Part shown: piece by piece, positions 26,457 through 61,193 of the stretch | Numbering within the stretch: the first letter of the stretch is position 1 | Layout: each line of letters opens with the position of its first letter | DNA from: Akkermansia muciniphila | Lineage (GTDB): Bacteria > Verrucomicrobiota > Verrucomicrobiia > Verrucomicrobiales > Akkermansiaceae | Assembly (NCBI GenBank): GCA_004557455.1 | Contig: SFDX01000015.1 | Span: forward strand, 1-64,000 | Length of the DNA: 64,000 nucleotides | Reading direction: 5' to 3' | The notes under the pieces: generated by a model | Told to the model about the DNA's origin: nothing | Databases searched by the model: none | What the model saw: the letters and a program-made list of their open reading frames with translations, nothing else | Made by a program: the position numbers and the translations under genes

Positions 26457-26489
26457 TACAGCATTCTGAATGCCGGGTTAAGCCTAAAT
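26457..26489. promoter_or_regulatory. decayed copy (a) of the palindrome/TTGAC module, tacaGCATTctgAATGCcgggTTAAGcCTAAAt
   Basis: Matches the consensus tacaGCATT-N3-AATGCtgta-GTCAAG-n-CTAAAA seen at 32114, 37126 and 61036. The next about 50 nt are also homologous to 61069..61115. Confidence 0.4.
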
Positions 26490-26692
26490 GGCAGAAAGAC
26501 CGCATTTTTGCTGCAATTTCGCCCACTTTCCCACCTACCTCCCCCGGAACATCCCACACATTTTTGGCACTCCGTGTTCTCTGCAATCCTAAATGCACCA
26601 TATGATGTGATTATTGACATGCCTCCTTCTTTTTGCGAAAATGGAATCCAAAGGCTTTTGTTTTACTGCGGGATAAGCCCTCGAAATCATAG

Positions 26693-26817: not shown

Positions 26818-27121
26818 CGACCGCCCTCCGTGCGGTGCAGCTTATGAAGGAGCAGGCCGACCCCCGCGCCGTCCGCACCGAAATCAGCGTCCGCAATCGC
26901 TACAGGGACAAGCGGGACTTCTTCCTCCGCCTCAAGCGCAACCGCTCTTGAGGCCGGAGCGCCCTGCCTCTGAGGATGGACACAGGGGCCATGGAGAAGG
27001 GGGGATTCAACGCTGTTTCGGAGGTCGCATATCACCCGGAGGAAACGGAGACTCTTCCCCCGGCCGCTGAGGTGGTTCGCCGCCCTTTGGCAGGAATATC
27101 GTCTGCCCCGATATTTTGAGC

Positions 27122-27150
27122 TTGATTTCTCTCCGTTATTCCACTACACT
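27122..27150 (+). promoter_or_regulatory. promoter TTGATT-17-TACACT for the PEP-CTERM protein gene (about 7-nt leader)
   Basis: TTGATT at 27122-27127, spacer tctctccgttattccac, TACACT at 27145-27150, ATG at 27164. Confidence 0.45.
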
Positions 27151-27163
27151 TAATCCCGCACGT

Positions 27164-27973
27164 ATGAAACTGCGTTCTCTCCTTCGTTCGCGTATTCTCC
27201 CCTTAGCCGCGCTCCTTGCCCTCGCCGCCCCTCCTTCCCGAGCGGCGGTGGAGATTATTACGTTCGGACCGGCGGGAAAATCTCTTTTCTCGACCTTTGC
27301 TACGGATCGCGTTACCACTCTGAGTAATGGTACGAGTGTTACTCTGTCGAGTAAGGATTCTCTGCAATGCATAACGACGTCATCTGAAGAGAGAGTTTCC
27401 ACTATTACGGCTAATGAGCCGTGGGTTAATGAATCCGCAGTAGAGGCGCTTAATAATGATTTGGGTACCCATATTACTGTTGCGGATATAGTAGGGACCG
27501 GATCGACGCCTATGCTGAGCGCTGCACATGGTAAAGGCGATGGGTTATGCTTGAATCTTGGTTCTACGCATCAAGTGGGTGACTCTATTACTCTCTACAT
27601 GTTTGTAACAGCCAGAGCTAGCGATTCAAATAAGACCATGTGGAATCTTGATGAGTTAACGGGTTTTCTTTCTCTGCTGGGTAGTGCGACATTGGAAAGG
27701 GCTGTCTATAGTGTTAATAACGGTTTTGTATCTTGTGGGCTAACGTCTAATATCGGGAGTACTTCGGCCAAGCACGCTATTTTGAAACTTTCGGGTAATA
27801 TCAAGGATGGGGGAACGGAGCTTCGCATTCCTCTTTCTATTGGTACAAGCGTGAACAACGAGGTTTATTCCATCGGTGCCATCCTATACTCCTACGACGT
27901 CCCTGAACCGTCATCATCTTTCCTCGTACTCTCCGGTTTATTACTCCTGCTACGCCGCCGGCGGCGGGGGTGA
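27164..27973 (+). CDS. PEP-CTERM-anchored secreted protein (putative exosortase substrate)
   Basis: Signal peptide MKLRSLLRSRILPLAALLALAAPPSRA. C-terminal VPEPSSSFLVLSGLLLLLRRRRRG is a PEP motif plus TM helix plus Arg cluster. Confidence 0.8.
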   Translation: MKLRSLLRSRILPLAALLALAAPPSRAAVEIITFGPAGKSLFSTFATDRVTTLSNGTSVTLSSKDSLQCITTSSEERVSTITANEPWVNESAVEALNNDLGTHITVADIVGTGSTPMLSAAHGKGDGLCLNLGSTHQVGDSITLYMFVTARASDSNKTMWNLDELTGFLSLLGSATLERAVYSVNNGFVSCGLTSNIGSTSAKHAILKLSGNIKDGGTELRIPLSIGTSVNNEVYSIGAILYSYDVPEPSSSFLVLSGLLLLLRRRRRG

Positions 27974-27994
27974 TGCTTACTCTCTCTTTCTCAC

Positions 27995-29476
27995 ATGGGA
28001 CGCATTGCAGACGAGACCATTCGAGGCGCCAAGTGGGGGCTCATCCAGAAGTGCACCATGCAGCCGGTGCAGTTCCTCTACGGCATCGTTCTCGCTCGCC
28101 TTATTACCCCGGAGGAATTCGGTATTCTGGGGCTTACATCGATTTTCTTTGCCATCGCCGGACAGTTGCAGAACTGCGGGTTCGGATCAGCCCTGATACG
28201 CAAGCAGGATCGCACGGAGGAAGATTGCTCGACCGTTTTTTGGTATAACGTTGGAGCCAGCTTTGTCCTATCTGCCGCCCTTTTTGTAGCAGCCCCTTGG
28301 TTTGCGGACTTCTTCAATCAACCTCCTTTGGTCAATATCACCCGCGTCTCTGCCGTGATGATGTTCCTCGGGAGTACCTCTGGCGTTCATTGGGCCCTCT
28401 ATTCCGCTCGCAGAGACTTCAAAACCCCGGCCATCGTTGGTATGATCACCACCCTCGTCGGTATTCCTGTCTGCTTAACCTTGGCTTTCTGCGGCTTCAG
28501 TTACTGGTCAATGGTCATTCAAGGAGTTGTGACCGGCCTACTTTCCCTCATCATCATCTGGATTATTTCCCCCTGGAAACCCAAGTTCATCTGGTCCTCT
28601 CGTTCCTTTAAGGAGTTCTTTGGGTTTGGCTCTAAGCTCGTCCTCTCCGGCCTTAATGATATCCTCTACCTTCAGTCCCGACAACTCATTATCGGTAAAT
28701 TTTATTCTCCCGCTCAGTTGGGAAATTTTAATAAGGGAATGCAGCTGTCTGAAATGCCGAGGATTTTAACTGATGGTGTTATCGGGGGTGTTATATTTCC
28801 TATTTTGTCTACCATTCAGAATGATGAGAAGAGACTTGTCGCTGTATATAGAAAATATATCAGGCTCAATAATCTTGTGTGTCAGTTTGTTATGCTTACT
28901 ATGGTATTTAATGCTCATGCCTTGGTAACCGTTCTCTATGGAGATGCTTGGTCTGAGGCGAGTGTCTATGCTTGCATTTTGTGCATTGGTGCCGCAACAA
29001 ATTCGCTTTCGTCAATCAATGCGAATCTCTACATGGTAAAGGGAAGGACGGATATTGTTTTGAAGATAAACGTCCTTCTCCGTATCTTCGGTATTATGGC
29101 GCTAATAGGCGCGGCTTTCATCAGTGTTGTGGCGATGTGTTGGGCCGCCGCTTCTACCGCCCTAGTTTGGTTTGTTCTTTGCCTTTACTATACAACAAAA
29201 GTAAGTTCTCTGGATTATCTGAAACAGTTAAAAGATTATCTTCCCTATATCTTTTTTTCAATTATTGCAAATATTCCATCCTACATCTTTTCCAGTGTGT
29301 GTGTGCATTCTGGGTTGAAGCTTATGATGGGGGTAGGTTGTTCATTTGTAATTTACTCATTTCTGCTCTACCTACGCAGAGACGAGATGGCAAATGAGTT
29401 GATTCATGTTTCGCTGAGGAGCCGTTTTATCAGGAGAATTACATCTAAGAAATTACAATGGAAATCAAGCAAATAA
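27995..29476 (+). CDS. wzx: Wzx-type polysaccharide flippase (MOP superfamily)
   Basis: 12 or more TM helices, 493 aa, typical Polysacc_synt architecture. The ORF shows a GC discontinuity (GC-rich 5' half, AT-rich from about 28650). Confidence 0.75.
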   Translation: MGRIADETIRGAKWGLIQKCTMQPVQFLYGIVLARLITPEEFGILGLTSIFFAIAGQLQNCGFGSALIRKQDRTEEDCSTVFWYNVGASFVLSAALFVAAPWFADFFNQPPLVNITRVSAVMMFLGSTSGVHWALYSARRDFKTPAIVGMITTLVGIPVCLTLAFCGFSYWSMVIQGVVTGLLSLIIIWIISPWKPKFIWSSRSFKEFFGFGSKLVLSGLNDILYLQSRQLIIGKFYSPAQLGNFNKGMQLSEMPRILTDGVIGGVIFPILSTIQNDEKRLVAVYRKYIRLNNLVCQFVMLTMVFNAHALVTVLYGDAWSEASVYACILCIGAATNSLSSINANLYMVKGRTDIVLKINVLLRIFGIMALIGAAFISVVAMCWAAASTALVWFVLCLYYTTKVSSLDYLKQLKDYLPYIFFSIIANIPSYIFSSVCVHSGLKLMMGVGCSFVIYSFLLYLRRDEMANELIHVSLRSRFIRRITSKKLQWKSSK

Positions 29477-30294
29477 TCAAGAGAGCAATCTTATATATAT
29501 TTAAGGGTGTCCCTGTACAGCAGCAGGTGGTTGTGAGACCACAGATTTCTTATCTGAGTCCCCATAACCGCATGTGCGGGAAGAAGGTCATCGTGACGGG
29601 TGGAAACCGCGGTTTGGGGTATGCAATGGCTAAGAGGATTGTTGAGGAAGGGGGTCATGTTGTGATAGCCGGAAGAAACGAGGATTCTCTTCGGAAGGCG
29701 TCGGATAAAATTGGTTGTCCCTATGTGCTTATGGATGTTCTGAGGCCTGATACATTCGATAGTTTTATGGCTTCATGCGAGGAAGTGCTACCCGGAATAA
29801 ACGGGTTGATTAACAATGCCGGTATTTCTCTGCATGAAGGAGATTTTCGACGCGTGGAGCCTCGACAGTTCAATATTCAGTTCGATACGAATCTCCGTGG
29901 TAGCTACTTTATGACACAGGCTTTTGTTCATTTACTCGAGAGTCGGAGTCGTTTGGGTGTCGTTCTATTGGTATCCTCAGAAACTGGTGAAACCGTTGAC
30001 TATCTTCCCTATGGCCTAACGAAAGCCAGTATTCATAGCTTAACGAAGGGTTTAGCAAAATACCTGATTAAAAGTGGTATCAGGGTTAATGCTATAGCTC
30101 CCGGAGTTACCGCATCAGATATGACTGGGTTTGCTTCAGACGGAAATCTCTACTGCCCCTATAATTTGACGCATAGGGCATATTTACCCGAGGAAGTGGC
30201 TGAAGTTGCTTGTTTCCTACTTTCTGATGCAGCATCAATTCTGAATGGACAAATCCTTGTCACAAACGAGGGTAAGACTATAAATCTGAGATAA
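29458..30294 (+). CDS. short-chain dehydrogenase/reductase (SDR)
   Basis: KKVIVTGGNRGLGYAMA Rossmann motif, NNAG, catalytic YLPYGLTKAS (YxxxK). The true start is possibly the internal ATG near 29572. Confidence 0.8.
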   Translation: MEIKQIIKRAILYIFKGVPVQQQVVVRPQISYLSPHNRMCGKKVIVTGGNRGLGYAMAKRIVEEGGHVVIAGRNEDSLRKASDKIGCPYVLMDVLRPDTFDSFMASCEEVLPGINGLINNAGISLHEGDFRRVEPRQFNIQFDTNLRGSYFMTQAFVHLLESRSRLGVVLLVSSETGETVDYLPYGLTKASIHSLTKGLAKYLIKSGIRVNAIAPGVTASDMTGFASDGNLYCPYNLTHRAYLPEEVAEVACFLLSDAASILNGQILVTNEGKTINLR

Positions 30295-30313
30295 TATGTT
30301 CTGACGTAATTGC

Positions 30314-32074
30314 CTAGAGTTTGCGAATTCTGCCTCGTAGACTTTGAATGAAATGGTGAATCCTCCTCTTGATTCCACGCTGCTTTCTCTGTGGCGGATC
30401 CACGATGATCTCATGCATTCGTACAAGAGCCTCGTTTTCATTCTCCGTCGAGGTAAAAATTTCCAAGATTATAGGCTTCTCTGTGACATGAGGAGTAACA
30501 AACTCCGGCAAGACTGATTTGAACTCTTCTTTTGTTGAGGCAGTCAAATACCTATATCCTAAATCTGAGGCATAGTGTCGTATCAATTTCTTGTTTTGAG
30601 ACGGGAAATGCCCGGCGGCAGCCATGTACGGGTCAGCATCCTCTCCAAATTGATAGCAGGGGTGGTATGGACTTCTGAACTCCACTCCACGTCCATTATT
30701 CACCAAAATGATCCTTAGATTGTTGCCAATATGTCGGTTTCCCAGAGAATTTATGTCGTAGAAGAAAGCAAGGTCACCAACAACTGCATAGAAGAGCTTA
30801 TTCGGACTAACCAATGATGCTCCTATGACGGAGGATAAATTACCATCAATACCAAAGCCTCCCACGTTAGAGAATACAGATACTTCCTGAGGCAGGGGAA
30901 ACATGCTCCAACAACGAAGAGTATTAAGAATTCCCAAGTGTAACGAGCTCCCTGACGGCAGCAGAGGAGCAATCTGACTTGCGACCCAAAGATTTGAGAA
31001 AGGAATGTCAGGTATGCGGTTTATTATGTCTTTCTGCTCCTGAATAATGGAGTTGGTTTGGATTCCTGCGCCTTCTTTGGGAAGAGCGGCATAGTGAATA
31101 AAGAAGCGTTCCTCTGGCATCTGAAAGACCGCTTCAAGTCGCCCTGCGGTATCTCTTCCGTACCCATCTTCACTGACTCTCCATATCCTTCTTGCAGAGT
31201 AGAGGGAAGACATCAGTCCGTAAGCACCGGATACTTCACCGATGTGAATTAATAAATCTATATTGTCAAGAAGTCTCGGTCGATGGTGATCCTGTTCAAA
31301 TAAAAGAGTAGTATTTACGGAATGTTCCCCCCTATAATTTCCGGTGTGATCACACAAGACAACGGCACCGTACTTGGCACAGAAGGAATCTATGGCAGTC
31401 AATAATGAACATGCTATCGGGGAATGGCTACCGATGAAAATGGCTATGTTCTTTGACGTAATATCAGGTAGGGGATCATAAACTGTAAAACGCCGAATCA
31501 CACGAGCGCTGGGAAGTGTCTGAATGGAGAAATCCTTGCTGTACCTCGTCTCCAAATTCAAGTGTACCGGGCCACCCCCGTGTTGTATAGCAGCCCAAAG
31601 AAGTCGATTTACCTTTAGCTCGCAGTCTCCTTCATCCTCCGGAGTTTGCACGAATTGAATGTGCTCTGATGCCAGAACTACATCATTGCCGACTACTCTT
31701 CGGTCGATGACTTGGGGAACAAGATTCCCGATCCGTCGAATATCCTGAGTGGCGGTAATTGCGATGATCGGTAATTTTCTATAAAATGCCTCCGTTAATC
31801 CCGGGATGTAATTTCGAGATGCTGTAGCGCCGGTACATGTTAAAACGACAGCCTCGCCGGATTCTGCTGACATTCCACATGCCATATATGCGGCTGAACG
31901 TTCGTCGAGGGATGAATAGATCTCAAACCATGGATCCTGCTGCATGCTGGCAACTAGGGTTACATTCGTTGTTCCGGGGGAGGCAACCACCTTTCTTACC
32001 CCATACGCCTTGAGAAGAAACAGCACGATTTGCACGTTTCTCTCGTTCGTGTAATGCTTAATTGCTCGCTCCAT
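30314..32074 (-). CDS. thiamine-pyrophosphate-dependent enzyme, MenD/acetolactate-synthase-like
   Basis: N-terminal VASPGTTNVTLVASM...VVLTCTGATASRNYIPGLTEAFYRKLPIIAITATQ aligns to the MenD PP-binding region. C-terminal TPP motif GDLAFFYDINSL...ILVNNGRGVEF. The start is set at MERAIKHY because the upstream ATG/GTG codons lie inside the predicted promoter. Confidence 0.65.
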   Translation of the reverse strand: MERAIKHYTNERNVQIVLFLLKAYGVRKVVASPGTTNVTLVASMQQDPWFEIYSSLDERSAAYMACGMSAESGEAVVLTCTGATASRNYIPGLTEAFYRKLPIIAITATQDIRRIGNLVPQVIDRRVVGNDVVLASEHIQFVQTPEDEGDCELKVNRLLWAAIQHGGGPVHLNLETRYSKDFSIQTLPSARVIRRFTVYDPLPDITSKNIAIFIGSHSPIACSLLTAIDSFCAKYGAVVLCDHTGNYRGEHSVNTTLLFEQDHHRPRLLDNIDLLIHIGEVSGAYGLMSSLYSARRIWRVSEDGYGRDTAGRLEAVFQMPEERFFIHYAALPKEGAGIQTNSIIQEQKDIINRIPDIPFSNLWVASQIAPLLPSGSSLHLGILNTLRCWSMFPLPQEVSVFSNVGGFGIDGNLSSVIGASLVSPNKLFYAVVGDLAFFYDINSLGNRHIGNNLRIILVNNGRGVEFRSPYHPCYQFGEDADPYMAAAGHFPSQNKKLIRHYASDLGYRYLTASTKEEFKSVLPEFVTPHVTEKPIILEIFTSTENENEALVRMHEIIVDPPQRKQRGIKRRIHHFIQSLRGRIRKL

Positions 32075-32110
32075 CTGGCTCTCTATGAATAATTCGGGTG
32101 AGACTTGGGT

Positions 32111-32140
32111 AGTGTACAGCATTTTGAATGCTGTAGTCAA
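32111..32140 (-). promoter_or_regulatory. promoter TTGACT-18-TACACT with the perfect palindrome TACAGCATT-ttg-AATGCTGTA in the spacer (copy b)
   Basis: On the minus strand: ttttagtcTTGACTacagcattcaaaatgctgTACACT. Same architecture as 37123..37152 and 37261..37290. Confidence 0.55.
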
Positions 32141-32259
32141 GACTAAAACAGATTTTTCACGAAAAAAAGGGATTTTTGAGCAAATAAACACTTTAAGATG
32201 GTGTATCTCCTGAACGCAAAATCGTGTAATCTATTGAGTATCAACGATTTACATGAGGT

Positions 32260-33552
32260 GTGCATTCAAAATGCATATCCTATGTGCGGGACATGGCAGG
32301 GAAGCAGGTATTGTCGGAAGACGAATTGAGGCAGCGCGTGCCGGATTGTACGGGCTGCGCGGCGTGTCTATGTGCCTGCGGGGTGCAAGCTATCCGGATG
32401 GTCGAGTCTCCGGAGGGCTTCTACCGACCGTCGATAGATTCGGGGCGCTGTGTGGGGTGCTGCAAGTGCATGCGGACTTGCCCGGTGTTGAATGAGGTCC
32501 AACGGAAGGCAGAGCAGAAGCGTCATACTGAGTCGGGAGGGGAGCCGAAGTTCCTTTATGGGTGGTATGGGGATGCAGTTGCAAGGGAGAGCAGCAGCAG
32601 CGGGGGCATTTTCACGGCGCTTGCTCGCGGTGTATTGCAGCGTGGAGGATGCGTGTTCGGGGCTGCGATGGGGGTGGATATGCGGGTGCGGCATGCTCGT
32701 GCTACATCGGAGGAAGCGCTGGGGGCTCTGCGTGGGGCTAAATACATGCAGAGCCGCATGGATGGTATCTATCGAGAGGTGAAGGCCGCCTTGGTGGCCG
32801 GGCGCCCTGTGCTTTTCTGCGGTGTCCCATGCCAGGTGGGAGGATTGCGTGCATACTTGGGGTACAAAGCTTGGCCGCAGTTGCTGACGATAGATGTCGT
32901 GTGCCACGGAGTGCCGACACTGCATCTGATGCCGGCTTATCTTGCGGATGAGATGCATCGCGCGGGGCGCGCGGATGCCCCGACCTCTGTGAACTTTCGA
33001 GACAAGTGCAGCGGGTGGGGACATTATGGGTACAGTGTGACCCTCACATGGCCTGATGGCACACAGCGGACTGTACCGCAGGGAAAGGATGCCTATATAC
33101 GCGCCTATTTATCGGATCTTCTGTTGAGCAAAGCCTGTTATAACTGTCGGTACAGTGGGGTGAGGGGTAAACTATCGGACATAACCTTGGGGGATGCTTG
33201 GGGAATATGGGAGGCTTGCCCGGAGGTGGATTGGCGGCAGGGTGTCTCTCTGGTTGTGGTACATACCGACAAGGGCGCGTCTTCCTTGTCGGGAGCCGAG
33301 GGCGTGGAACTGCACCGTTGGAGCGAAGAAGAAGCTACGCTTCATAACCCGTCTTTGTTGCGCCCCGCATCGGAACCTCCCGGGACGGAGGTCGCGCGAC
33401 GATTATTAGGGGGAGTTGCTCTGGAAAAGATTTTGATTCGGGTAGGGAAGCTCAACCCGAACAATAACAAGAGTTTCTTTCACCCAAAAGGTGCTTTGCA
33501 TGTGCTACGGAAGATACTGTGTGCCCTATTACCGAGGTGCATCAGTAGGTGA
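32260..33552 (+). CDS. coenzyme F420 hydrogenase/dehydrogenase beta-subunit-like (FrhB family) Fe-S flavoprotein
   Basis: N-terminal 2x[4Fe-4S] ferredoxin motifs CTGCAACLCACGV and CVGCCKCMRTCP. FrhB-like C-terminal domain. This family is typically paired with polysaccharide pyruvyl transferases. Confidence 0.65.
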   Translation: MHSKCISYVRDMAGKQVLSEDELRQRVPDCTGCAACLCACGVQAIRMVESPEGFYRPSIDSGRCVGCCKCMRTCPVLNEVQRKAEQKRHTESGGEPKFLYGWYGDAVARESSSSGGIFTALARGVLQRGGCVFGAAMGVDMRVRHARATSEEALGALRGAKYMQSRMDGIYREVKAALVAGRPVLFCGVPCQVGGLRAYLGYKAWPQLLTIDVVCHGVPTLHLMPAYLADEMHRAGRADAPTSVNFRDKCSGWGHYGYSVTLTWPDGTQRTVPQGKDAYIRAYLSDLLLSKACYNCRYSGVRGKLSDITLGDAWGIWEACPEVDWRQGVSLVVVHTDKGASSLSGAEGVELHRWSEEEATLHNPSLLRPASEPPGTEVARRLLGGVALEKILIRVGKLNPNNNKSFFHPKGALHVLRKILCALLPRCISR

Positions 33553-34828
33553 TCAATTTCCATAGAAGCAAAAGCCTCCGTTTCTCTCTCCCGGATTGTG
33601 CCAGTTTATCTCGGTTAAAGATACCCTGTATGCGGTGTCTGATATATTGTGGTAGGAGTCTGCGGATTTCTTTCCAAAGGGGGGCAAGGTAGGCACGTCG
33701 CTCCGCTCGTACAGCAGAGCGATCTACCTGCACTACTGTGCTGCCCGGGGGCATAGGGGCATCCAACGCTTGTTGAAGGAAACGACGGGTTGCATCGATT
33801 TGCGCGGCCAGCACAGGCTCCGCTGCAGTGTAGTCCATGGGAGCATCCTTCAGGGCGGCGAGGCGTGACAGGGTATTCTCGGTGTTGTTGAGGAGTTCCT
33901 CTTCCGAGAAGATGGGGATCGGCATCGTAAGCATGCGGGAAAGACTGGGGATGCGATCGCCGCCTCTGCTTTCTATGTTCAGGTAGATGACAGGTTTTCT
34001 GAAAATGATGCCGAAGCACGTAGCGTGGAAGCTATCTGTTACCAACACCTTGCACTGTCGGATGATGTTTACCCAATCGGCAACCTCCTCACCGTTCAGT
34101 AAATGGACGGATGGAAGACCTGTCGAGTCCCAGCGTTCAGCCAGTTGATGGCAGATCGGAACGTAGGGAGTATGGAGAGTACAGAAGGCGGCAAATTCAT
34201 TGGGAAGGGTTTTTCTACCTTCATCCGCCAACCTCCCCCATTCTTTACTGTTGAGCAGGAACACCGGGTCCAGAACGTGCACGGCCTGCACACCGTAATA
34301 ATCTCGGCAGATATCTACTCCACTAGCCTCGCGCACTGAGATGGCCGTGAACTTCTTCAGGGCTGCTGACCTGGCCTCCACAAATTCCTTAGGAACATTA
34401 CTGTGATCAGCACTGCCGAAACTGGCTGCCACAGCGATACGTTTTTTGCCATCAGGGAGGTCAGAAAAGTCAAATATCTCCCTGTCCTGTATATGGCGAG
34501 TGTCCCAGTTGGGTTTATATGTCCAAACCTGGTCACTACCCACGATGAAGGTATCGTAATCGGCACTGATAGTCCGGAAGGTATGTCGCCCGAAACAATG
34601 GGGGGTCCATCGAAGGTGTTTTTGACAGAACCGCGAAAAGGGAGAATTGAAAGAAGTCAGATCAAGGGTATAAAGAAAACGTCTATCTATCAGGGCTGGA
34701 GTAGTACCTCGATTTTTGCAATATTCAGCGATAGCGTAGGCTGTTAGATTGGCTCCATAATTAGGACAGCCGGCGAAATTCAGAATGGCGATTTTTTTAT
34801 TCATGATTCGGAATGAAATGCTGAACAA
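33542..34828 (-). CDS. polysaccharide pyruvyl transferase (WcaK/CsaB family)
   Basis: MNKKIAILNFAGCPNYGANLTAYAI is the characteristic N-terminus; the C-terminal half is consistent with the PS_pyruv_trans fold; convergent with the FrhB-like gene. Confidence 0.8.
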   Translation of the reverse strand: MFSISFRIMNKKIAILNFAGCPNYGANLTAYAIAEYCKNRGTTPALIDRRFLYTLDLTSFNSPFSRFCQKHLRWTPHCFGRHTFRTISADYDTFIVGSDQVWTYKPNWDTRHIQDREIFDFSDLPDGKKRIAVAASFGSADHSNVPKEFVEARSAALKKFTAISVREASGVDICRDYYGVQAVHVLDPVFLLNSKEWGRLADEGRKTLPNEFAAFCTLHTPYVPICHQLAERWDSTGLPSVHLLNGEEVADWVNIIRQCKVLVTDSFHATCFGIIFRKPVIYLNIESRGGDRIPSLSRMLTMPIPIFSEEELLNNTENTLSRLAALKDAPMDYTAAEPVLAAQIDATRRFLQQALDAPMPPGSTVVQVDRSAVRAERRAYLAPLWKEIRRLLPQYIRHRIQGIFNRDKLAQSGREKRRLLLLWKLITY

Positions 34829-35096
34829 GCTTCATGCGTTACAGCCAGGGGATTATCCCATATTTTGAGTGAGTTGTCAATTTGTTTTTCGGACACGCCT
34901 CAGGAAGAAAAGTCTTCCGAGCTTGATTTCCAATGGGGTTGGGTGCATAATCGCAACACAAACCAAATTAGCGCATTATGGCAAACATAATCAAGAAGAG
35001 GTGCCGCTACAGCGCGGCCATGAAGGAAGAGGCCGTAAGGTGGTACCCCTTCTCGACGCCAGCGTTTTATTGCATTGGGTTCATTTATAAAAATAG

Positions 35097-36068
35097 CTAA
35101 ATAAGATCTTTGAATCCGTAACGCCTGAAGGTACCCGCTATTGCACGTACCGCTGCCGGTGCCGGTACGTATATGGACGTAGTGAGGAGATAGTGTAGAA
35201 AAGAGACAAGGAGTCCACGTCGTGCTGGGGGAGCATTCCTCTTCAAGGTTGCATTGATCCATACCCACATGGCAATTTGCCTTCGAATAAGGACTTCTCC
35301 GAACAGCTTTCTGTCTCTCACGGACCAATAGGGGGGCATATCCTTGGCAATACGCGTCCAAAAAGAAAAATGAGAGATATAAATTTCCTTAGGTAATAAA
35401 CCCATCTCGAATTTATTATTGGAACTGCCTCGGTGAACAGTGTAGTTCATAAGTGTATTGTGGACAAAGACGGTATTTTGTGAAAATATAAGGTATCTGA
35501 TAACAAAATCCTGATCTTCTCCGTTAGACATGTTCTCATTAAAGTGAAGATCGTGTGCTTTTATGAGATTCATACGATATAATTTCCCCCATGCGGCAAG
35601 ATTCTGTATATATCGTAGAGACTCGTGACGTGGCAGAGAGAGATCCCTGCGTCCGTCGGAGAGAACCAGAACATCTTCCGTTTCATCTCCTTTGCAAAAA
35701 CGAATCGCCCCTGCGGCTAAATCTGCCTCCGGCTTGCCCTGTAATGCATGTAGAAGAGATGATAGCATAAATGGTTCCATCATGTCGTCACTATCATGGA
35801 AGGCAAGAAATTCTCCCGCAGCAATTTTTATACCTACATTGCGGGCATGCGAGACTCCCTGATTATTCTGATGGATTACATGCACCCATGGCCGTGAGTT
35901 TGCATATTCATCCAGAAATAAGGAACTTCCATCGGTCGAACCATCATCCACCAGAATAAGCTCAATGTTGCAATAATCCTGAGCTTCGACGGAAGCCAGA
36001 CATTCGGGGAGATATCCAAGTCCGTTGTAAACTGGAATGACGATGGAAATGAGAGGATTGTCATTCAT
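35097..36068 (-). CDS. family 2 glycosyltransferase
   Basis: LISIVIPVYNGLGYLPECLASVEAQ...ELILVDDGSTDGS...AFHDSDD is a GT-A fold with DxD. The start overlaps the upstream GT2 stop (ATGAATGA). Confidence 0.8.
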   Translation of the reverse strand: MNDNPLISIVIPVYNGLGYLPECLASVEAQDYCNIELILVDDGSTDGSSLFLDEYANSRPWVHVIHQNNQGVSHARNVGIKIAAGEFLAFHDSDDMMEPFMLSSLLHALQGKPEADLAAGAIRFCKGDETEDVLVLSDGRRDLSLPRHESLRYIQNLAAWGKLYRMNLIKAHDLHFNENMSNGEDQDFVIRYLIFSQNTVFVHNTLMNYTVHRGSSNNKFEMGLLPKEIYISHFSFWTRIAKDMPPYWSVRDRKLFGEVLIRRQIAMWVWINATLKRNAPPARRGLLVSFLHYLLTTSIYVPAPAAVRAIAGTFRRYGFKDLI

Positions 36069-37110
36069 GGATATTATGTTGTTGGTTCTGATGGTCGTAG
36101 GCATTCAATTTGCGGAGGTAAATGCTCAGCAGCGGAAGTGCAGCAAAGCGCGGCAAGTGAGCTATTTTCTCCATTCTCCGGAAATGAAGGTTGTCATTTA
36201 ATCGAAGCATGGTGGCCATCGGGGGAGTTATGGCGGCCCGGAGGGCGCGGGCTAAGGAGAGGTAGGAACGCCGGTTAGGGGGAACCTTATGGAATTGCCA
36301 CTTGAGGTAGGCGTTCAGGCGCTTGGCAAAGAAGAGTTGCACCTTCGGGCGTTCGGCGATACCCTCTTCGACTGCGAGTCGGGCAAACTCACTCAGGGTA
36401 CCGAGGAGGTGCTCGATATTGCGCATGGAGTAGGAGTTCATGATGGAGCCGGGGCGAACATTGCGGTACACATAGGTGCGCTCCGGGATGCAATAGATGG
36501 AGGGTTTGGAGAAAGCCAAGTAAAGGCTCCATCGGTTGTCTTCGTGCAGGAGTCCCTCTTCGAATAAGAGATGATGCTCGCGGATGAAGTCTGCCCGAAG
36601 CAGCTTATTCCAGCCTTGTACCATCCACTGCTCTGCAATATAGGCTTTGAGCGCTTCCTCCCGCTGCCACAGAATACCTGTTTGGTTATCCATCCATGCC
36701 GGGTCATCCGTCATCAGGCTCGTTTGTCCTATGACGACATCTGCTCCGTGCTGCAGGGCGGCTTCATAGAGGAGGGATAGTGCATTCGGGGACAGTTGAT
36801 CATCGCTGTCCAAGAAGAGGAGGTACTCTCCCGTTGCCGCGGCTATTCCTGTATTACGTGCAGCAGATAACCCCCTGTTTCTCTCGTGGCAAAGGACTCT
36901 ATGGGCAAGAGGATTATCGGTTGTCGCTAAAAGCTGCAGAGCGAGCTCCATCGAGTCATCCCCTCCGCAATCATCAACGAGAATCAGCTCAAACGGTGGC
37001 GGCTCGAGCTGTGCGGTGATAGAACGGATGCAATCTCCGATGTAGTCTCGAACCTGATAAACAGGCACGATGAGAGATATGGCGGGGTGATGTGTGTGTG
37101 AGGATGACAT
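36061..37110 (-). CDS. family 2 glycosyltransferase
   Basis: ISLIVPVYQVRDYIGDCIRSI...ELILVDDCGGDDS...LFLDSDDQL. Confidence 0.8.
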   Translation of the reverse strand: MSSSHTHHPAISLIVPVYQVRDYIGDCIRSITAQLEPPPFELILVDDCGGDDSMELALQLLATTDNPLAHRVLCHERNRGLSAARNTGIAAATGEYLLFLDSDDQLSPNALSLLYEAALQHGADVVIGQTSLMTDDPAWMDNQTGILWQREEALKAYIAEQWMVQGWNKLLRADFIREHHLLFEEGLLHEDNRWSLYLAFSKPSIYCIPERTYVYRNVRPGSIMNSYSMRNIEHLLGTLSEFARLAVEEGIAERPKVQLFFAKRLNAYLKWQFHKVPPNRRSYLSLARALRAAITPPMATMLRLNDNLHFRRMEKIAHLPRFAALPLLSIYLRKLNAYDHQNQQHNIHE

Positions 37111-37122
37111 GATGCCGGGAGG

Positions 37123-37152
37123 ATACTACAGCATTTGTAATGCTGTAGTCAA
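37123..37152 (-). promoter_or_regulatory. promoter TTGACT-18-TAGTAT with an embedded 11-nt-arm perfect palindrome ACTACAGCATT-aca-AATGCTGTAGT (copy c); near-leaderless for the GT2 at 37110
   Basis: On the minus strand: tttttagacTTGACTacagcattacaaatgctgTAGTATcctcccggcatcATG. Confidence 0.55.
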
Positions 37153-37260
37153 GTCTAAAAATGGGGGATAGCGCATGTGGACTGTATCCGACGGCTACAC
37201 GCGAACGCAGAGGTGGGAGATATGGCTCCCCTTGACTATCAAGGATTTATGCCGAATTTG

Positions 37261-37290
37261 ATGACTACAGCATTACAAATGCTGTACACT
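37261..37290 (+). promoter_or_regulatory. promoter ATGACT-18-TACACT with palindrome TACAGCATT-aca-AATGCTGTA in the spacer (copy d), upstream of the plus-strand GT2
   Basis: atgacTACAGCATTacaAATGCTGTAcact; ATG at 37314. Confidence 0.5.
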
Positions 37291-37313
37291 GAGCCGAGGG
37301 AGGTAAGAGAAGC

Positions 37314-38342
37314 ATGATAGATGAACATGAAGAGTTAACGGATAAGTCAGTAGCCGTATCCGTTATTGTGCCGTTTTATAACGCCGCCGACTATTTGGAA
37401 GAGTGCATCAATTCCGTGCTGTCGCAGGATGTGGAAGCGGTGGTTGTGTTGTTGTTGATTGATGATTGCAGTACGGATGGTGGAGATCGCATAGCGGAGC
37501 GAATTTTTGCCGGTGCCGGGGCTGACAGGCTGTGCGTATTGGTTCGTCAGCCGCGGAATGCCGGGACATCGACTGCCAGGAACACGGGGGTAGAGATGTC
37601 GCGGGGTCGTTATGTGTTCTTTTTGGATGCGGATGATAAGCTGTTACCCGGTGCGCTGCGCGCGATGTTGCGGGCTGCGGAGGCTCATCAGGCAGACATG
37701 GTGATGGGCGATGTGGAGTGCCGCACCGGGAAGTATGGCGACTATTTTCACCCGAGGTGCCTCGGCGTCTTGGAGGGTGAGGAATCCTTCGCCGCACAGA
37801 TGCGGCACGATGTGTATGCTACTGTGTGGAACCGATTGATTCGGCGGGAGTATTTAGAGAACCCACCCCTTCGCTTCGAGGCCGGTATTTATCATGAGGA
37901 CGAGCTGTATTGTTTCCGACTCCATGCTCGCTTCGGCCGCACCGTTGTCATCCCGAATACGACCTACTACTACCGAACGGAGGTTCCGGGGTCTCGTGAT
38001 ACCGTCTATACGTTTCAGCATGTCATTGACTCCTTCATTGTTGCGAAGGGAGAAGTTGTCTGTGCGTCGAAGAATCATCTATCCGAGCGCGGGGATGTGG
38101 TGCGCCACATCACCATGTTGCTCCAAACGACGCTGGATTATAAGCTCAGAATATCCAAGTCGGGGTGGCGTCAGGTGTGGTATGCCGCCGGGCGTATTGT
38201 GCCGCTTCTGGAGCCGGACTTGTTGGGCCTCATGCTCCGGGCACCGCAACCTATCGTTCGGCGAGTCGGCAAGCTCTGCCGTATGGCCCCGACTTGGCTG
38301 CGACGGCCCGTGCTGTGGGCGTGTTTTATGTGCCTGAAGTAG
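37314..38342 (+). CDS. family 2 glycosyltransferase
   Basis: VSVIVPFYNAADYLEECINSVLSQ...LLIDDCSTDGG...FFLDADDKL. Confidence 0.8.
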   Translation: MIDEHEELTDKSVAVSVIVPFYNAADYLEECINSVLSQDVEAVVVLLLIDDCSTDGGDRIAERIFAGAGADRLCVLVRQPRNAGTSTARNTGVEMSRGRYVFFLDADDKLLPGALRAMLRAAEAHQADMVMGDVECRTGKYGDYFHPRCLGVLEGEESFAAQMRHDVYATVWNRLIRREYLENPPLRFEAGIYHEDELYCFRLHARFGRTVVIPNTTYYYRTEVPGSRDTVYTFQHVIDSFIVAKGEVVCASKNHLSERGDVVRHITMLLQTTLDYKLRISKSGWRQVWYAAGRIVPLLEPDLLGLMLRAPQPIVRRVGKLCRMAPTWLRRPVLWACFMCLK

Positions 38343-48861: not shown

Positions 48862-49026
48862 CTCCCCTCATGGGAGGGGGAATCTACTACGGGCATGTGT
48901 GTGGAGCGCGCCCGAAAAAAGGTGCCGCCTTAGTACTCAACTTGAGGATACAATCTGAAAGGTGAAGCGTCAGCGAGGAAGAACAGATGCGGGAGTGGTG
49001 ATTTCCTTACTTCTATGCATGAAGTA

Positions 49027-50259
49027 TCAGTCACTCACCACCTTGAGAAAATCCTCCACACCCATGATCCACTCTTTCTGATGGTCTGAGAAGGACGAGT
49101 GCAGACAGCGCGGCAGAACAAGTCGAACGTCCTGTTGCTTCATCTCCGTCGTTTGATTTTCGCTGATACCGGGTTCGATTGTAAGAAGATGTTTAGTTTT
49201 GATTCGAGCTGCTTCCGTCAGTATCTGTCGCCATCGATCCTTGCATGTAGTCTTGACCCCCAGCATATACAGATGCATCGAAGGAAAAGCGGGATCCCGA
49301 TAGGCTTCTATACTTGGAAAAATATAATCCGGACGAGATTTGCCCTCTGTAACAGGAGTTCGCGAGTATGCTATATTACGATCGATGAAAATTTGCTCGA
49401 TATGGTTCTCAAGAGATTGGCCTGCTCTGGTTTTTCTCCTATTGAGAAATGTTTTAGAAAGAGAAATAAAACGCTCGGCAGAAAGCCCACGATTGATTTC
49501 CTCATCTAAAAGATACTTTTCAAAAGAGAGAAACAGTTTTGTCTCTGTATTGTACCAGTAATAAAGCAAGTCGTCTGCCGTACCGGATTGCACTTCTCCG
49601 GCATTCGGGCAACCGGAAATTAGGCGAGCGTAGGAGGAAAACTCGGCTGTCGATGGGAGAGTTCCCTTGAACCGAACTATCATCTCATCTAAAAAATCAT
49701 CATTTTGCGGAACCTCCAGCCCCATTGCAAAAAAGAGTTCATAGGCCCGCGCCGGAAGCTCTCTGTTGATGAGGATATCAGAATCGACACCGGAAAAAGA
49801 TGTCTTCTGCTGTTCAGTATATCCGAATAACCATTTCAACCAAGGCAGAGCGTCGCTGTCCTTGTCTACAATAGCAAAGACGGCGGGAGTATCTGACTTT
49901 TTCCGATGTGCGATAAAGAGAAGATCTCCTTCCTCCATGCGCAGTGTCGCATCATTGGTCCGGTAGTACATTCGATATTCACTTCTGTCAGTTCTTCCAA
50001 GCTCTCGCCCCTTTGCCCGTGCATCATACAGAGTGAGTACCCCGGGATTCGATATGACAGAATCGTCATCTGCATAAATATATAAGCACGGAATGTTGAG
50101 CTTTTCGCACCCTTGGGGGTCACCGAACATTTGCACAATGGGACGAATGGCGTTGATTTCATGTTGGTTCGAGTGCCGGGGTGACGTCTCAACAGCAGAA
50201 AGTATCTTAAAGGCCAGAGCATCGAAGCAATTGGCCAAGCAGGCGGAACGTAACATCAC
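49027..50259 (-). CDS. EcoRII-like type IIE/IIP restriction endonuclease
   Basis: C-terminal catalytic region TRAGQSLENHIEQIF...GKSRPDYIFPSIEAYRDPAFP...LGVKTTCKDRWRQILTEAARI resembles the EcoRII-C PD-(D/E)xK domain. Lies immediately downstream of a Dcm-like methyltransferase with a 4-nt overlap. Low GC. Confidence 0.6.
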   Translation of the reverse strand: MMLRSACLANCFDALAFKILSAVETSPRHSNQHEINAIRPIVQMFGDPQGCEKLNIPCLYIYADDDSVISNPGVLTLYDARAKGRELGRTDRSEYRMYYRTNDATLRMEEGDLLFIAHRKKSDTPAVFAIVDKDSDALPWLKWLFGYTEQQKTSFSGVDSDILINRELPARAYELFFAMGLEVPQNDDFLDEMIVRFKGTLPSTAEFSSYARLISGCPNAGEVQSGTADDLLYYWYNTETKLFLSFEKYLLDEEINRGLSAERFISLSKTFLNRRKTRAGQSLENHIEQIFIDRNIAYSRTPVTEGKSRPDYIFPSIEAYRDPAFPSMHLYMLGVKTTCKDRWRQILTEAARIKTKHLLTIEPGISENQTTEMKQQDVRLVLPRCLHSSFSDHQKEWIMGVEDFLKVVSD

Positions 50260-51575
50260 GATTTAAAACAGTTATAATTTGCCAAAACCGATGCTATAAA
50301 GCGAGCGGAGGCTTCAATTGCGGGAACAACGACACTGTTTCCTATTTGGTGATATGCCTGAGTCGAGGATACGGGGAAGATAAAAACAGAAGGATCATAC
50401 CCTTGCAGCTGCATAGCTTCCGAAACGGATAAACGTCGAGGACGATCGCCCGGCTGTTCAATAAGAATTTCGGCCCCGTCTTTATGATACCTTGCGGATA
50501 TAGTTCTCGTTACCTCATCGTCTCTGAGAGGCCAGGTGTGTAACCCATAACCGAATCCGTTTCCGGCTTTTTCGTGGTGCGCCTTGTGCCGTTCCAATGT
50601 AGCCCAAGTTCCCTCTCCCAATGTGTACCCCGGTAAATTTTTCATGATAATGCCGGGAAGAGTTGGATAACTGTAATCCTTTCCCGGTTTTGTCGGAATA
50701 TCAATCGGGTATTTTTCTGTATTGATTTGCTTCGGATCAAATCCGATAAGATACATGCGTTCGCGATGCTGGGGAACCCAAGCAGCCCCATCGACTATCT
50801 TCCATGAAATGACATATCCGAGTTCATCCTGAAGAGATCGCCGAATCACTTCAAATGTGCGACCTTTGTCGTGTGAGAGAAGATTTTTGACATTCTCCAA
50901 CATAAATGCTTTAGGCCGCTTTAATCTGAGAATTTCCTTAATCTCGAAGAAGAGCGTACCTTGGGTTTCATCCTCAAATCCATGCTTTCTCCCCAAAGAA
51001 TTTTTTTTGGACACTCCCGCCAGAGAAAACGGTTGGCAGGGGAACCCCGCACAAAGGACATCATGGTCGGGAATGGAAGACTTCGGAATACTCCGAATAT
51101 CGCCGAACGGCATTTCACCATAGTTGCGAAGATACGTTTGCTGAGCGTATTTATCCCACTCACTGGAAAAGACACATTTGCCTCCCGCTCTTTGGAAGGC
51201 TATACGAAAGCCCCCTATGCCGGCAAAGAGGTCGATAAACGTAAAGTTCCACTGCTTGGGCGGAGCATAGGGGATACCATCGAATAGATCTCTGGACGCA
51301 CATTCAGGGAGAGAAACAGGTTCTCTTGCGGACAAAACACCATCATGTTCATCCTCGATTTTATATAAATGCCGTTGGAGAGAAAGTCTTCCTTCCTTAG
51401 TCAGGAAGGGAATTGGCTGCTCCTCCCATGCGCGCTGTACATAGTGGGATACAACAGCCAAATAATCACGATCGGAAGGGTTCGGAATATCAACCGTGTC
51501 TTCAATAAGTTTTCCTCCGCCGGCAAGGAGACCGGTGTATGAGAGAAATTCTGCGGACTGAGTTGATGTAGACAT
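50256..51575 (-). CDS. dcm: DNA (cytosine-5)-methyltransferase, Dcm/M.EcoRII-like
   Basis: Motif I FIDLFAGIGGF, motif IV GFPCQPFSLAG, motif VI ENVKNL, motif VIII QHRERMYLIG, motif X YHQIGNSVVVP. Start set at the ATG at 51575 because the upstream ATG (51605) falls inside the predicted promoter. Confidence 0.9.
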   Translation of the reverse strand: MSTSTQSAEFLSYTGLLAGGGKLIEDTVDIPNPSDRDYLAVVSHYVQRAWEEQPIPFLTKEGRLSLQRHLYKIEDEHDGVLSAREPVSLPECASRDLFDGIPYAPPKQWNFTFIDLFAGIGGFRIAFQRAGGKCVFSSEWDKYAQQTYLRNYGEMPFGDIRSIPKSSIPDHDVLCAGFPCQPFSLAGVSKKNSLGRKHGFEDETQGTLFFEIKEILRLKRPKAFMLENVKNLLSHDKGRTFEVIRRSLQDELGYVISWKIVDGAAWVPQHRERMYLIGFDPKQINTEKYPIDIPTKPGKDYSYPTLPGIIMKNLPGYTLGEGTWATLERHKAHHEKAGNGFGYGLHTWPLRDDEVTRTISARYHKDGAEILIEQPGDRPRRLSVSEAMQLQGYDPSVFIFPVSSTQAYHQIGNSVVVPAIEASARFIASVLANYNCFKS

Positions 51576-51595
51576 GATGGATGAATACCGCAGAC

Positions 51596-51624
51596 ATTCT
51601 ATCATCTCATATCTGCATTGTCAA
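51596..51624 (-). promoter_or_regulatory. promoter TTGACA-17-TAGAAT for the methyltransferase/restriction operon
   Basis: On the minus strand: tcTTGACAatgcagatatgagatgaTAGAATgtctgcggtattcatccatcATG. Confidence 0.45.
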
Positions 51625-59095: not shown

Positions 59096-59842
59096 ATGAT
59101 GATGCGTTTACTCTGCGTGCTCACGGGGCTGTGGCTGTCCGCCGCGGCTTGGGCGCGCTTGCCGGAGGGCTGCACCCAGGCGGTGGTGGGGATGACGGAG
59201 GGCTGGAACAGCCCGCACGCCAAGGTTTACCTGGTGGAGAAGGACCGCTCCGGCAAATGGCAGCGCGTGCTCGGGCCTGTCTCCGCCCGCCTGGGGCGCA
59301 ACGGCGCGGTCTGGGGGCTGGGGCTGCACACCAACCCGGCCGGGGCCGTTACTAAAAAGGAGGGCGACGGACGTACGCCGGCGGGTATCTTCCGCATCGG
59401 CGGGCTGTGGACGACGACCGGCACCCCGGTGAAGCACCACCGCCGCCTTCCGGAGGTGCGGGTGGATGCGCGGGACCTCTGGGTGTCCGACCCCAAGACG
59501 CCGCATCTGTATAACCGCTATGTACGGCTGGACCACCCGGCGGCTTCGGCTTGGGAGCTGCGCGAGCAGATGAAGCAGAATGACTACGCGCACAGCATCA
59601 AGCTGCAAATCTGCCACAACTCGCCGGATACCCCGGGGCGGCCGGTGCCGGGGGCGGGTTCGTCTATTTTCTTCCACATCTGGCGGGACGGCGGCAAATA
59701 TCCCACGGCGGGCTGCACGGCGATGGGGGAGCAGAATCTGCGGGCCATCATCGCTCGGCTGAATCCGGATCGCAAGCCGGTTTACATCATGCTGCCGCGG
59801 GAGGCCTATGCGCGTTACCGCACGGAGTGGCGGCTGCCTTGA
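59096..59842 (+). CDS. secreted L,D-transpeptidase-family protein (YkuD-like catalytic domain)
   Basis: Signal peptide MMMRLLCVLTGLWLSAAAWA. Catalytic-site-like HIWRDGGKYPTAGCTAM (His...Cys). Confidence 0.6.
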   Translation: MMMRLLCVLTGLWLSAAAWARLPEGCTQAVVGMTEGWNSPHAKVYLVEKDRSGKWQRVLGPVSARLGRNGAVWGLGLHTNPAGAVTKKEGDGRTPAGIFRIGGLWTTTGTPVKHHRRLPEVRVDARDLWVSDPKTPHLYNRYVRLDHPAASAWELREQMKQNDYAHSIKLQICHNSPDTPGRPVPGAGSSIFFHIWRDGGKYPTAGCTAMGEQNLRAIIARLNPDRKPVYIMLPREAYARYRTEWRLP

Positions 59843-60993: not shown

Positions 60994-61035
60994 GCCAACC
61001 TCCGCCGCCCCACCCTCCGCAGGCCGATTTTGCCT

Positions 61036-61068
61036 ACTGCATTTTGAATGCTGGGTCAAGCATAAAAG
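61036..61068. promoter_or_regulatory. decayed copy (e) of the palindrome/TTGAC module, tactGCATTttgAATGCtgggTCAAGcaTAAAAg
   Basis: 30 of 36 nt identical to copy b at 32114..32148. The following about 50 nt are homologous to 26490..26535. Confidence 0.4.
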
Positions 61069-61193
61069 TTGGAAAATCCGCAGTTTTCCTTCATTTTCTC
61101 GCACTTTTGCCCGACCTCTTCTCCGCCGGTCTCTACGCCCTCTTTGTCGCAAATTCAGCGTAAGTCGTTGAGCATCAACACTCTGCATGCCCT

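Follow-up and report, generated by a model that had tools for sequence, protein, structure and literature searches.

Paired palindromes in Akkermansia promoters are probable recombinase core sites of invertible promoter segments

A 64-kb stretch of Akkermansia muciniphila DNA (GCA_004557455.1, contig SFDX01000015.1, positions 1 to 64,000; hereafter the window) contains three perfect copies of a 21-bp palindrome, TACAGCATT-N3-AATGCTGTA, at positions 32115–32135, 37127–37147 and 37266–37286. The palindromes are members of pairs, and it is highly likely that these pairs are the recombinase core sites of invertible promoter segments (invertons), i.e. phase-variation switches. A first-pass annotation of this DNA had already reported the three perfect copies, as well as decayed ones at or within 2 nt of 26457, 61035 and 61192, and a search of the window with up to three mismatches recovers them all. 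It took the palindromes to be operators of one dimeric regulator that coordinates glycan promoters. The present analysis compares the window with approximately 770 kb of related loci or blocks, which are identified by L-numbers (e.g. L017, L083).

With up to three mismatches allowed the window has six copies of the 21-mer, compared with 0.02 expected from shuffled sequences. The 13-nt core GCATT-N3-AATGC is present in seven copies where 0.06 are expected. The seven include a copy missing from the first-pass list, GCATTCAAAATGC at 32262 (21-mer at 32258–32278), and a further remnant, also missing, is at 26579. Instead of three independent sites, the copies form four pairs, 26457/26579, 32115/32258, 37127/37266 and 61035/61192 (modules 1 to 4), with spacings of 122, 143, 139 and 157 bp, respectively. 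The central trinucleotides are complementary in the three better preserved pairs (TTG/CAA, TGT/ACA and TTG/CAA). The 11-nt arms ACTACAGCATT/AATGCTGTAGT, previously assigned to the plus-strand copy, are those of the copy at 37125–37149; the copy at 37266 has 9-nt arms.

The related loci display the same arrangement. When degenerate copies are admitted (threshold of at least 14 of 18 matches), 202 sites are found and 154 of these (~76%) fall into 77 pairs. The centre-to-centre spacings form classes of 122–124, 143–148 (the majority), 155–158, 168 and 179–182 bp. Two repeats flank a short intergenic segment in the four window pairs and in the 77 pairs of the related loci, and the asymmetric centre marks 75 of the 77 as inverted. 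In these 75 pairs the two N3 sequences are reverse complements of each other, with 32 different trinucleotides represented; with shuffled partners the mean number of matches is 4.3 and the maximum is 12. As an odd-length centre is never its own reverse complement, every site is directional. Deviations in the arms, on the other hand, have a mirrored counterpart in the partner at only 3 of approximately 170 such positions, and these 3 are confined to the two outermost bases. Matched centres together with unmirrored arms are exactly what the core site of a site-specific recombination system predicts, and the sites are therefore read as such.

Base pairing would constrain all 21 positions, which disfavors an RNA or single-strand hairpin; this candidate was ruled out, since arm deviations are almost never compensated between partners. 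No Rfam family matches the modules or the conserved leaders described below. A symmetric regulator is also disfavored because it would leave the central three bases unconstrained. The latter point bears on the alternative closest to the first-pass annotation, which is that the palindromes are operators of a dimeric or looping tetrameric transcription factor, either MerR-like or an occluding repressor, with no DNA rearrangement. The symmetric 9-3-9 palindrome is indeed positioned exactly between the -35 and -10 boxes, and a symmetric protein very probably binds the arms. However, such a factor offers no reason for centres that are complementary within pairs and otherwise unconserved, when arm mutations are almost never mirrored. 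A different proposal, that each inverton has a private 3-nt centre which bars cross-recombination, was also rejected: modules 2 and 4 share TTG/CAA, and one metagenome-assembled genome (MAG) has CCG/CGG at most of its sites.

The promoter elements are divided between the segment and its flanks. The consensus of 76 modules from many genomes consists of an A+T-rich tract, cTTGC or TTGAC, the 21-bp site and TAnnnT, in this order. This bears out the earlier observation that the palindrome fills the spacer of sigma-70-type promoters. The first two bases of TAnnnT (TA) are the final two of the repeat, and the other four extend into the unique flank; the spacer formed by the repeat is 17–18 bp. All 76 modules have the -35 box and the A+T-rich tract at one inner end and not at the other. 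For TAnnnT, 22 modules have it solely at the -35 end, 45 solely at the opposite end, eight at both ends and one at neither, and approximately two-thirds of the single-target modules are assembled with the -35 far from their own -10. As read from these sequences, the segment contains the -35 and upstream element, the spacer is supplied by the repeat and the target gene retains its -10. This layout, where the -35 may be away from its -10, accounts for the “-35” boxes at 26457 and 61035 that point into the 3′ ends of the preceding genes.

An operator does not account well for a -35 at one site per pair, for a -10 at the other end in 45 of the 76 modules, or for -35 ends that point into gene 3′ ends. 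The MerR-type activator suggested earlier is contradicted by the spacer length, 17–18 bp compared with the typical 19–20 bp. As the first-pass annotation stated, no regulator gene is obvious in the window: no MerR or other helix-turn-helix gene is present among the window proteins scanned, and the one DNA-binding match is to an ECF-type sigma factor (gene at 2689–3270).

The distance between partners is also constrained. By internal sequence, 78 modules sort into 53 mutually unrelated groups, and 33 of these are spaced 143–148 bp. The other 20 groups are in phase with 145 bp at a period of 11.0–11.4 bp (~11.2 bp); their mean offset of 1.35 bp was matched by 0 of 5000 random sets. The module 3 pair (139 bp), which is the best in the window, deviates somewhat from this phase. 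DNA-looping systems in vivo show a period near 11 bp, and phasing of ~11 bp would be expected if sites only ~12–16 turns apart must be brought together. Helically phased pairs are likewise a property of DNA-looping operators, and this is the second feature that the transcription factor alternative explains.

The grouping of internal sequences is pertinent to another alternative, namely that the pairs are non-autonomous mobile repeats, such as repetitive extragenic palindromic (REP) doublets or miniature inverted-repeat elements, and are promoter-like only by common descent. Like such elements, the modules occur in many copies, are restricted to the genus, vary little in size and have terminal inverted repeats. 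However, mobile copies would be similar to one another, whereas the internal sequences of the modules are mostly unrelated. In addition, the arms lack compensatory changes of the hairpin type, and the pattern takes in a -10 located in the unique flank.

Genomic position adds to this. Among 162 core sites classified in the window and the loci with a rough open reading frame (ORF) picker, 131 are intergenic. For the sites with both neighbors called (n = 102), 51 are between divergent genes, 50 between tandem genes and one between convergent genes, compared with a convergent share of 21% for intergenic regions in the same DNA. The motif therefore belongs with gene starts and not with gene ends. 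A terminator or an extragenic palindromic repeat is ruled out by this position. Convergent regions are where extragenic palindromic repeats usually accumulate, and the single convergent site thus also argues against mobile repeats, an origin that we find scarcely credible. Neither the position nor the arm changes are those of REP-type elements, with no search aimed at a REP-associated transposase having been made.

An exact-palindrome scan with one genome per species returned at least 114 blocks. Approximately 100 of these are from Akkermansia, Akkermansiaceae and further gut MAGs of Akkermansia type, a single genome often contributing many palindrome-bearing blocks; ~10 matches in unrelated taxa, among those listed, equal the chance prediction for 18 specified bases. 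On this sequence sampling the motif is a genus-wide, multi-copy element that is essentially specific to Akkermansia-type genomes. The window itself encodes a PEP-CTERM protein and a membrane pyrophosphatase, the latter in a 90%-identity cluster to which NCBI gives the name Akkermansia. It is not tied to a glycan cluster, nor does it appear to coordinate glycan promoters as had been suggested, since its neighbors across genomes are varied surface proteins and not members of one pathway.

A profile-free XerD search of all ORFs in the loci shows a family of ~325-aa proteins with a match to Pfam Phage_integrase (PF00589, 53 bits compared with a cut-off of 27). Databases contain more than 1100 relatives, and those with names are annotated as tyrosine-type recombinase/integrase of Akkermansia. 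The family is only distantly related to XerC/D and scores below all NCBIfam Xer cut-offs. Catalytic residues R, K, R, H and Y are kept on the XerD alignment. The recombinase gene starts directly beside a repeat pair in L017, L023, L031, L051, L083, L090, L095, L098, L101 and L109. In the independently fetched contig L121 it is beside a pair 182 bp apart with centres GTG/CAC, and here the -35 faces the gene; the -35 end faces the recombinase gene in seven of seven complete cases. A dedicated tyrosine recombinase of this kind, encoded elsewhere in the genome, most likely performs the inversion. Recombinase core sites thus replace the single dimeric regulator as the interpretation of the palindromes, given the co-varying centres, the one -35 per pair and the recurrent recombinase neighbor. 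The transcription factor alternative is very improbable.

A third repeat variant, CCCAGTATT-CGG-AATACTGCC (motif CAGTATT-N3-AATACTG) with an adjacent CTTGAC, is found in L128–L130 at ~1157–1185, directly upstream of a recombinase gene. A decayed partner with the complementary centre CCG is ~160 bp away.

In the inverton model, each pair of 21-bp sites would bound an invertible segment, with ~100–160 bp between the repeats. The two 9-bp arms would bind a recombinase dimer, and the asymmetric central trinucleotide would be within the overlap region of strand exchange; because of this location the centres must be identical in the partners and give the site its direction. The -35 and A+T-rich element inside the segment would abut one repeat, which serves as the 17–18-bp spacer to a -10 that extends into the fixed flank. 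Inversion would move the -35 together with its upstream element across to the opposite end and turn the flanking gene OFF. Where the other flank also has a -10, inversion would switch the opposite gene ON. Flipping in the window's species, the recombinase that acts, the cleavage positions and the transcription starts are what we infer from these features.

Module 3 is between a GT2-GT2 operon and a divergent GT2 gene. The left inverted repeat (37127–37147, TACAGCATT-TGT-AATGCTGTA), a presumed recombinase core site, extends inward to 37151 for a length of 25 bp. The right inverted repeat (37266–37286, TACAGCATT-ACA-AATGCTGTA) extends inward from 37262; the two repeats are 139 bp apart and their centres, TGT and ACA, are reverse complements. 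All 21 positions of the left repeat are identical to the reverse complement of the right one, in addition to the 4-bp inward extension. Between them is the presumed invertible segment (37148–37265). At its left end it has the -35 TTGACT (37147–37152, minus strand) with a short A+T-rich tract, and 34 bp before the right repeat there is an internal palindrome, CTTGACTATCAAG (37231–37243). The fixed -10 TAGTAT (37123–37128, minus strand) of the GT2-GT2 operon (36061–37110 and 35097–36104, minus strand) is paired with this -35 as assembled, and the module is predicted to be ON for the operon. The predicted leader of the GT2 gene at 37110 is only ~6 nt, which fits with the use of -35/-10 promoters in A. 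muciniphila and with the frequency there of leaderless (~10%) and short-leader mRNAs (PMC4782308).

On the opposite side, the fixed -10 TACACT (37285–37290, plus strand) of the divergent GT2 gene (37314–38342, plus strand) is opposite a weak -35, ATGACT, as assembled. ATGACT derives from the 4-bp inward extension of the inverted repeat. The promoter architecture that was thought to be shared by the three perfect copies is therefore present in the two minus-strand copies, and in the plus-strand copy (37261–37290) only the fixed -10 is retained, with the weak -35. This gene is predicted to be weakly expressed or OFF in the assembled orientation. After inversion its TACACT would gain TTGACT and the A+T tract; the flipped junctions are predicted to read ...AATGCTGTAGTCATCAAATTCGGC and TGTAATGCTGTA joined to GTCATCAAATTCGGC.

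Module 2 has a perfect left repeat (32115–32135, TACAGCATT-TTG-AATGCTGTA) and a right repeat (32258–32278, GTGTGCATT-CAA-AATGCATAT) with decayed outer arms. The core GCATT-CAA-AATGC of the right repeat is intact, its centre complements TTG, and the inner arm GTGTGCATT recurs in L038, L075 and L097. The promoter (32111–32175, minus strand) is predicted to be ON for the gene of a thiamine pyrophosphate (TPP) enzyme (30314–32074, minus strand). It consists of the -10 TACACT at 32111–32116, the repeat as an 18-bp spacer, the -35 TTGACT at 32135–32140 and an A+T-rich tract that reaches ~32175. An internal palindrome, TTGAGTATCAA, is at 32234–32244. The arrangement is identical in a second sample (L118). 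The hexamers named in the first-pass annotation for modules 2 and 3 are present, and a consensus scanner gives TTGACT-18-TACACT (32140..32111, minus strand) and TTGACT-18-TAGTAT (37152..37123, minus strand). Taken alone the promoter scanner is uninformative, with 8 matches compared with 6.0 expected.

Module 4 is upstream of a giant secreted protein gene (ATG at 61353, running off the window). Its left repeat (61035–61055, TACTGCATT-TTG-AATGCTGGG) has 15 of 18 matches and abuts a -35 box (GTCAAG on the plus strand, 61055–61060) that points into the 3′ end of a KamA-like gene (59827–60993). The right repeat (61192–61212, CTCTGCATT-CAA-AATGCTGTA) is followed by the fixed -10 TAGGCT (61211–61216, plus strand), together 61192–61216. 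The module is predicted to be OFF for the rightward gene as assembled. The giant protein clusters with PATR-repeat (autotransporter-type) proteins that are beside invertons in other genomes. The internal palindrome of module 4 is TTGAGCATCAA at 61168–61178.

Module 1 (26457–26599) appears to be a decayed relic of an inverton. The left repeat (26457–26477) has 15 of 18 matches, and the right remnant (26579–26599) has only 9 of 21 positions in common with its partner, with an indel. A -35-like GTTAAG beside the left repeat points into the 3′ end of a pyrophosphatase gene. A conventional TTGACA-17-GAAAAT promoter follows the module at ~26624. The arrangement is the same in two other assemblies.

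The internal palindromes of modules 2, 3 and 4 are of the type TTGA-N3-TCAA (TTGA[GC][TC]ATCAA). Exactly three of these occur in the 64-kb window, each inside a module and 24–34 bp from the promoter-distal repeat (32234–32244, 37231–37243 and 61168–61178). Elsewhere, for example in L042, L051, L052, L076, L078 and L106, the palindrome is found at 24 or 32–34 bp, in 9 of 76 modules; TTGA is enriched 20–39 bp from the promoter-distal repeat. It may be a candidate site for an accessory factor or an arm-type site.

Several observations in related genomes are pertinent to inversion itself. The homologous modules of L076 and L078 are opposite in orientation relative to a homologous 170-bp flank, in a comparison between species. 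The placing of homologous flanking proteins varies between genomes, being next to the -35 in some and at the opposite end of the module in others. Contig ends no more than 35 bp from a repeat are found in at least ten cases. The SPAdes-style contigs L002, L009, L014, L056 and L087, five in number, end 33–35 bp beyond the repeat; if k = 55, which is assumed here, the last k-mer starts at the inner edge of the repeat, and a branch of the assembly graph at the repeat is suggested for this reason.

The MAG contigs L002, L009, L014, L027, L040, L053, L056, L074, L087, L094 and L112 end 0–1 or 33–35 bp from a repeat. Such ends are far commoner than chance and are consistent with assembly breaks caused by mixed orientations. 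L087 (binned as Bacteroides) and L098 (binned as Acetatifactor) look like mis-binned Akkermansia contigs. Two loci show a more complex arrangement: in L015 (4563/4897/5875) and L049 (150/476) repeat pairs are 326–334 bp apart, the unique flanks are 40-bp inverted duplicates and one 5′ leader is thus common to both flanking genes. A third site is present in L015. These may be shufflon-like multi-site arrangements.

Invertons have been described in Akkermansia. The cps1 capsule inverton of A. muciniphila was shown to have ON and OFF states by polymerase chain reaction (PCR) and quantitative PCR, and its orientations were physically separated and quantified in mice and humans (PMC13343947). Thirty-two A. 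muciniphila invertons have a repeat motif and a promoter motif in common, and one is beside autotransporter genes (inverton group 138, PMC11892184). Among the phyla compared, Akkermansia has the highest intergenic inverton count per genome (PMC10028968). The modules described here are from the same genus and are similarly short intergenic segments with inverted repeats that have an ...ATT..AAT... centre. They also resemble the published invertons in that there are many copies per genome with one motif and a promoter motif, near capsule/glycan and autotransporter loci. A published A. muciniphila example, with 17-bp repeats whose starts are 174 bp apart, is within the size range found here. A. 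muciniphila invertons are reportedly also the subject of Jiang et al. (2019, Science; cited in PMC13343947).

The half-sites differ, however. The published repeat motif is quoted as CGGATT..AATCCG (PMC13343947), compared with CAGCATT-N3-AATGCTG here. CGGATT..AATCCG has no match in the window, and only one match, at chance level and with a 2-nt spacer, in the ~770 kb of related loci (L079). Judged by sequence, CAGCATT-N3-AATGCTG is a sister motif and not of the same site family. A literature search by motif sequence and for “mobile promoters” gave nothing relevant. Most likely this is the inverton mechanism already known in Akkermansia, with a diverged site sequence.

The difference in half-sites is one of several points that weigh against the inverton reading. 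In the recombinase family the first catalytic His is replaced by a conserved Asp (D-x-x-R-H-T-F-A-S compared with HxxR) in eight of eight aligned members, including L051, L083 and L101, and a search of the window proteins shows that no member of the family is encoded there. A flipped copy was not found for any of the four window modules: all same-species sequences, which are consensus contigs from two to three samples per module that encode the exact proteins beside the modules and report the majority state only, have the orientation of the window. Metagenomes scanned once for the flank and repeat of module 3 and once for a generic -35 plus repeat gave 0 matches. The gene-context statistics depend on the rough ORF picker. 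Only module 3 keeps two perfect repeats, and modules 1, 2 and 4, which are partly decayed, may be locked. With degraded partners in three of the four modules, doubt remains chiefly over the continued activity of the switches in this species.

This doubt defines a further alternative, that the modules are descendants of invertons which became fixed in this species, either through loss of the recombinase or decay of the partner repeats, and are now constitutive promoters. It would explain the degraded partner repeats, the same orientation in every same-species contig, the ordinary promoter after module 1 and the lack of a recombinase in the window. However, the perfect 25-bp repeat and matching centre of module 3 would not easily persist in the absence of recombination or selection, the centres of modules 2 and 4 are still complementary, and minority orientations do not show in consensus assemblies. 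We regard fixed descendants as unlikely, and active invertons remain the preferred interpretation.

Comparison with other phase-variation and recombination systems shows both likenesses and differences. In Bacteroides fragilis, promoters of capsular polysaccharides are reportedly inverted by the Mpi serine recombinase (Krinos et al. 2001). Similarities include several glycan loci, promoter segments of ~170–230 bp, inverted repeats with a common motif, a globally acting recombinase and most loci being OFF at a given moment. Unlike the present case, B. fragilis has the whole promoter (-33/-7) inside the segment and a serine master invertase; in the present modules the repeat doubles as the spacer, the segment does not include the -10 and the enzyme linked to them is of the tyrosine recombinase type. 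In the fimS switch of E. coli, the FimB and FimE tyrosine recombinases invert a promoter segment. It is alike in the type of recombinase, in recombinase genes beside the switch and in accessory DNA-bending sites inside the segment. It differs in having a 314-bp segment, 9-bp repeats, a complete promoter and a single copy, compared with dozens of segments of 120–180 bp with 21-bp core sites here. The core sites of lambda-Int and Xer, ~21–28 bp in length, have inverted arms that flank a short asymmetric overlap which matches between partners. The present sites are similar in arm pairs, matching asymmetric overlap and core length. Here, however, only three central bases vary and these are flanked by invariant TT/AA; a 7-bp overlap would be suggested.

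Taken jointly, these features may describe a more specific system, which we put forward tentatively and consider somewhat less likely than not. The recombination site would be the promoter spacer, and a half-promoter (upstream element and -35) would shuttle between fixed -10s, forming a two-way toggle at divergent gene pairs. Core sites would be integral turns apart (~11.2 bp), and the odd 3-nt centre would guarantee directionality. An Akkermansia-specific clade of tyrosine recombinases would have its own genes behind such switches, with feedback on the switching rate, and site specificity would have drifted between species (CGGATT, CAGCATT and CAGTATT). If true and not already described, these points would be a mechanistic refinement of phase variation in Akkermansia.

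They would also mean that searches with the published motif miss invertons in many Akkermansia species. Akkermansia is under development as a probiotic, and its capsule is phase-variable and important for colonisation of the mucus layer (PMC13343947). The window suggests that in a non-muciniphila Akkermansia species such a switch, with a different repeat, controls one or more islands for glycan biosynthesis as well as a giant secreted protein. The rules proposed are testable, i.e. matched 3-nt centres, spacing in steps of ~11.2 bp, the -35 inside and the -10 outside, and a candidate invertase family is named. With respect to annotation, a perfect palindrome in a promoter spacer is not necessarily an operator.

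The genes beside the modules mostly encode surface or secreted types. The 128 flanking proteins form 90 clusters, which include PEP-CTERM proteins (several with lectin-like Laminin_G_3), PATR-repeat autotransporter-like giants, and ankyrin and Sel1 repeat proteins. Others are an acyltransferase (Acyl_transf_3), DUF6056 and a PrsW protease. Surface-structure targets, as seen with invertons, are found in the window also, namely the GT2s, the pyruvyl-transferase cluster, PEP-CTERM and the giant secreted protein. A low-G+C surface-glycan island (27164–38342) is bounded and punctuated by modules 1–3. It encodes a PEP-CTERM protein, a Wzx-like flippase, a short-chain dehydrogenase/reductase (SDR), the TPP enzyme, an FrhB-like protein, the pyruvyl transferase and three GT2 proteins. 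The best conventional promoter match in this region, TTGACA-17-GATAAT with an upstream TG (34852–34880, minus strand), is just ahead of the pyruvyl-transferase gene (33542–34828), which may be expressed independently of the module 3 switch.

The window has two low-G+C islands, at 27000–38000 (glycan) and 49000–51600, with 45–54% G+C compared with ~62% elsewhere, and both were probably acquired horizontally. The second contains a pair of genes for an EcoRII-type restriction enzyme and a Dcm-type cytosine methylase (49027–51605). The ECF-type sigma factor gene at 2689–3270 is followed by two short ORFs without Pfam matches and is upstream of the gene for a 1240-aa ankyrin-repeat protein (4119–7841). 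Ankyrin-repeat proteins also flank invertons in L100.

Many invertons are followed by a conserved ~170-bp leader (...CAGGTATCTCAGCCTCCCGACG..., or a second type with TTGTAGGGYCGTTGGATTGTAGCA at its start), which is upstream of small PEP-CTERM genes. It is located immediately outside the repeats in L036, L045, L050, L059, L063, L065, L067, L078, L111 and others, and in some loci inverted copies are present on both sides of one module; it has no Rfam match. L065 also displays group II intron domains (RF02001 and RF01998) at 3558–3849, ~1.5 kb from the inverton.

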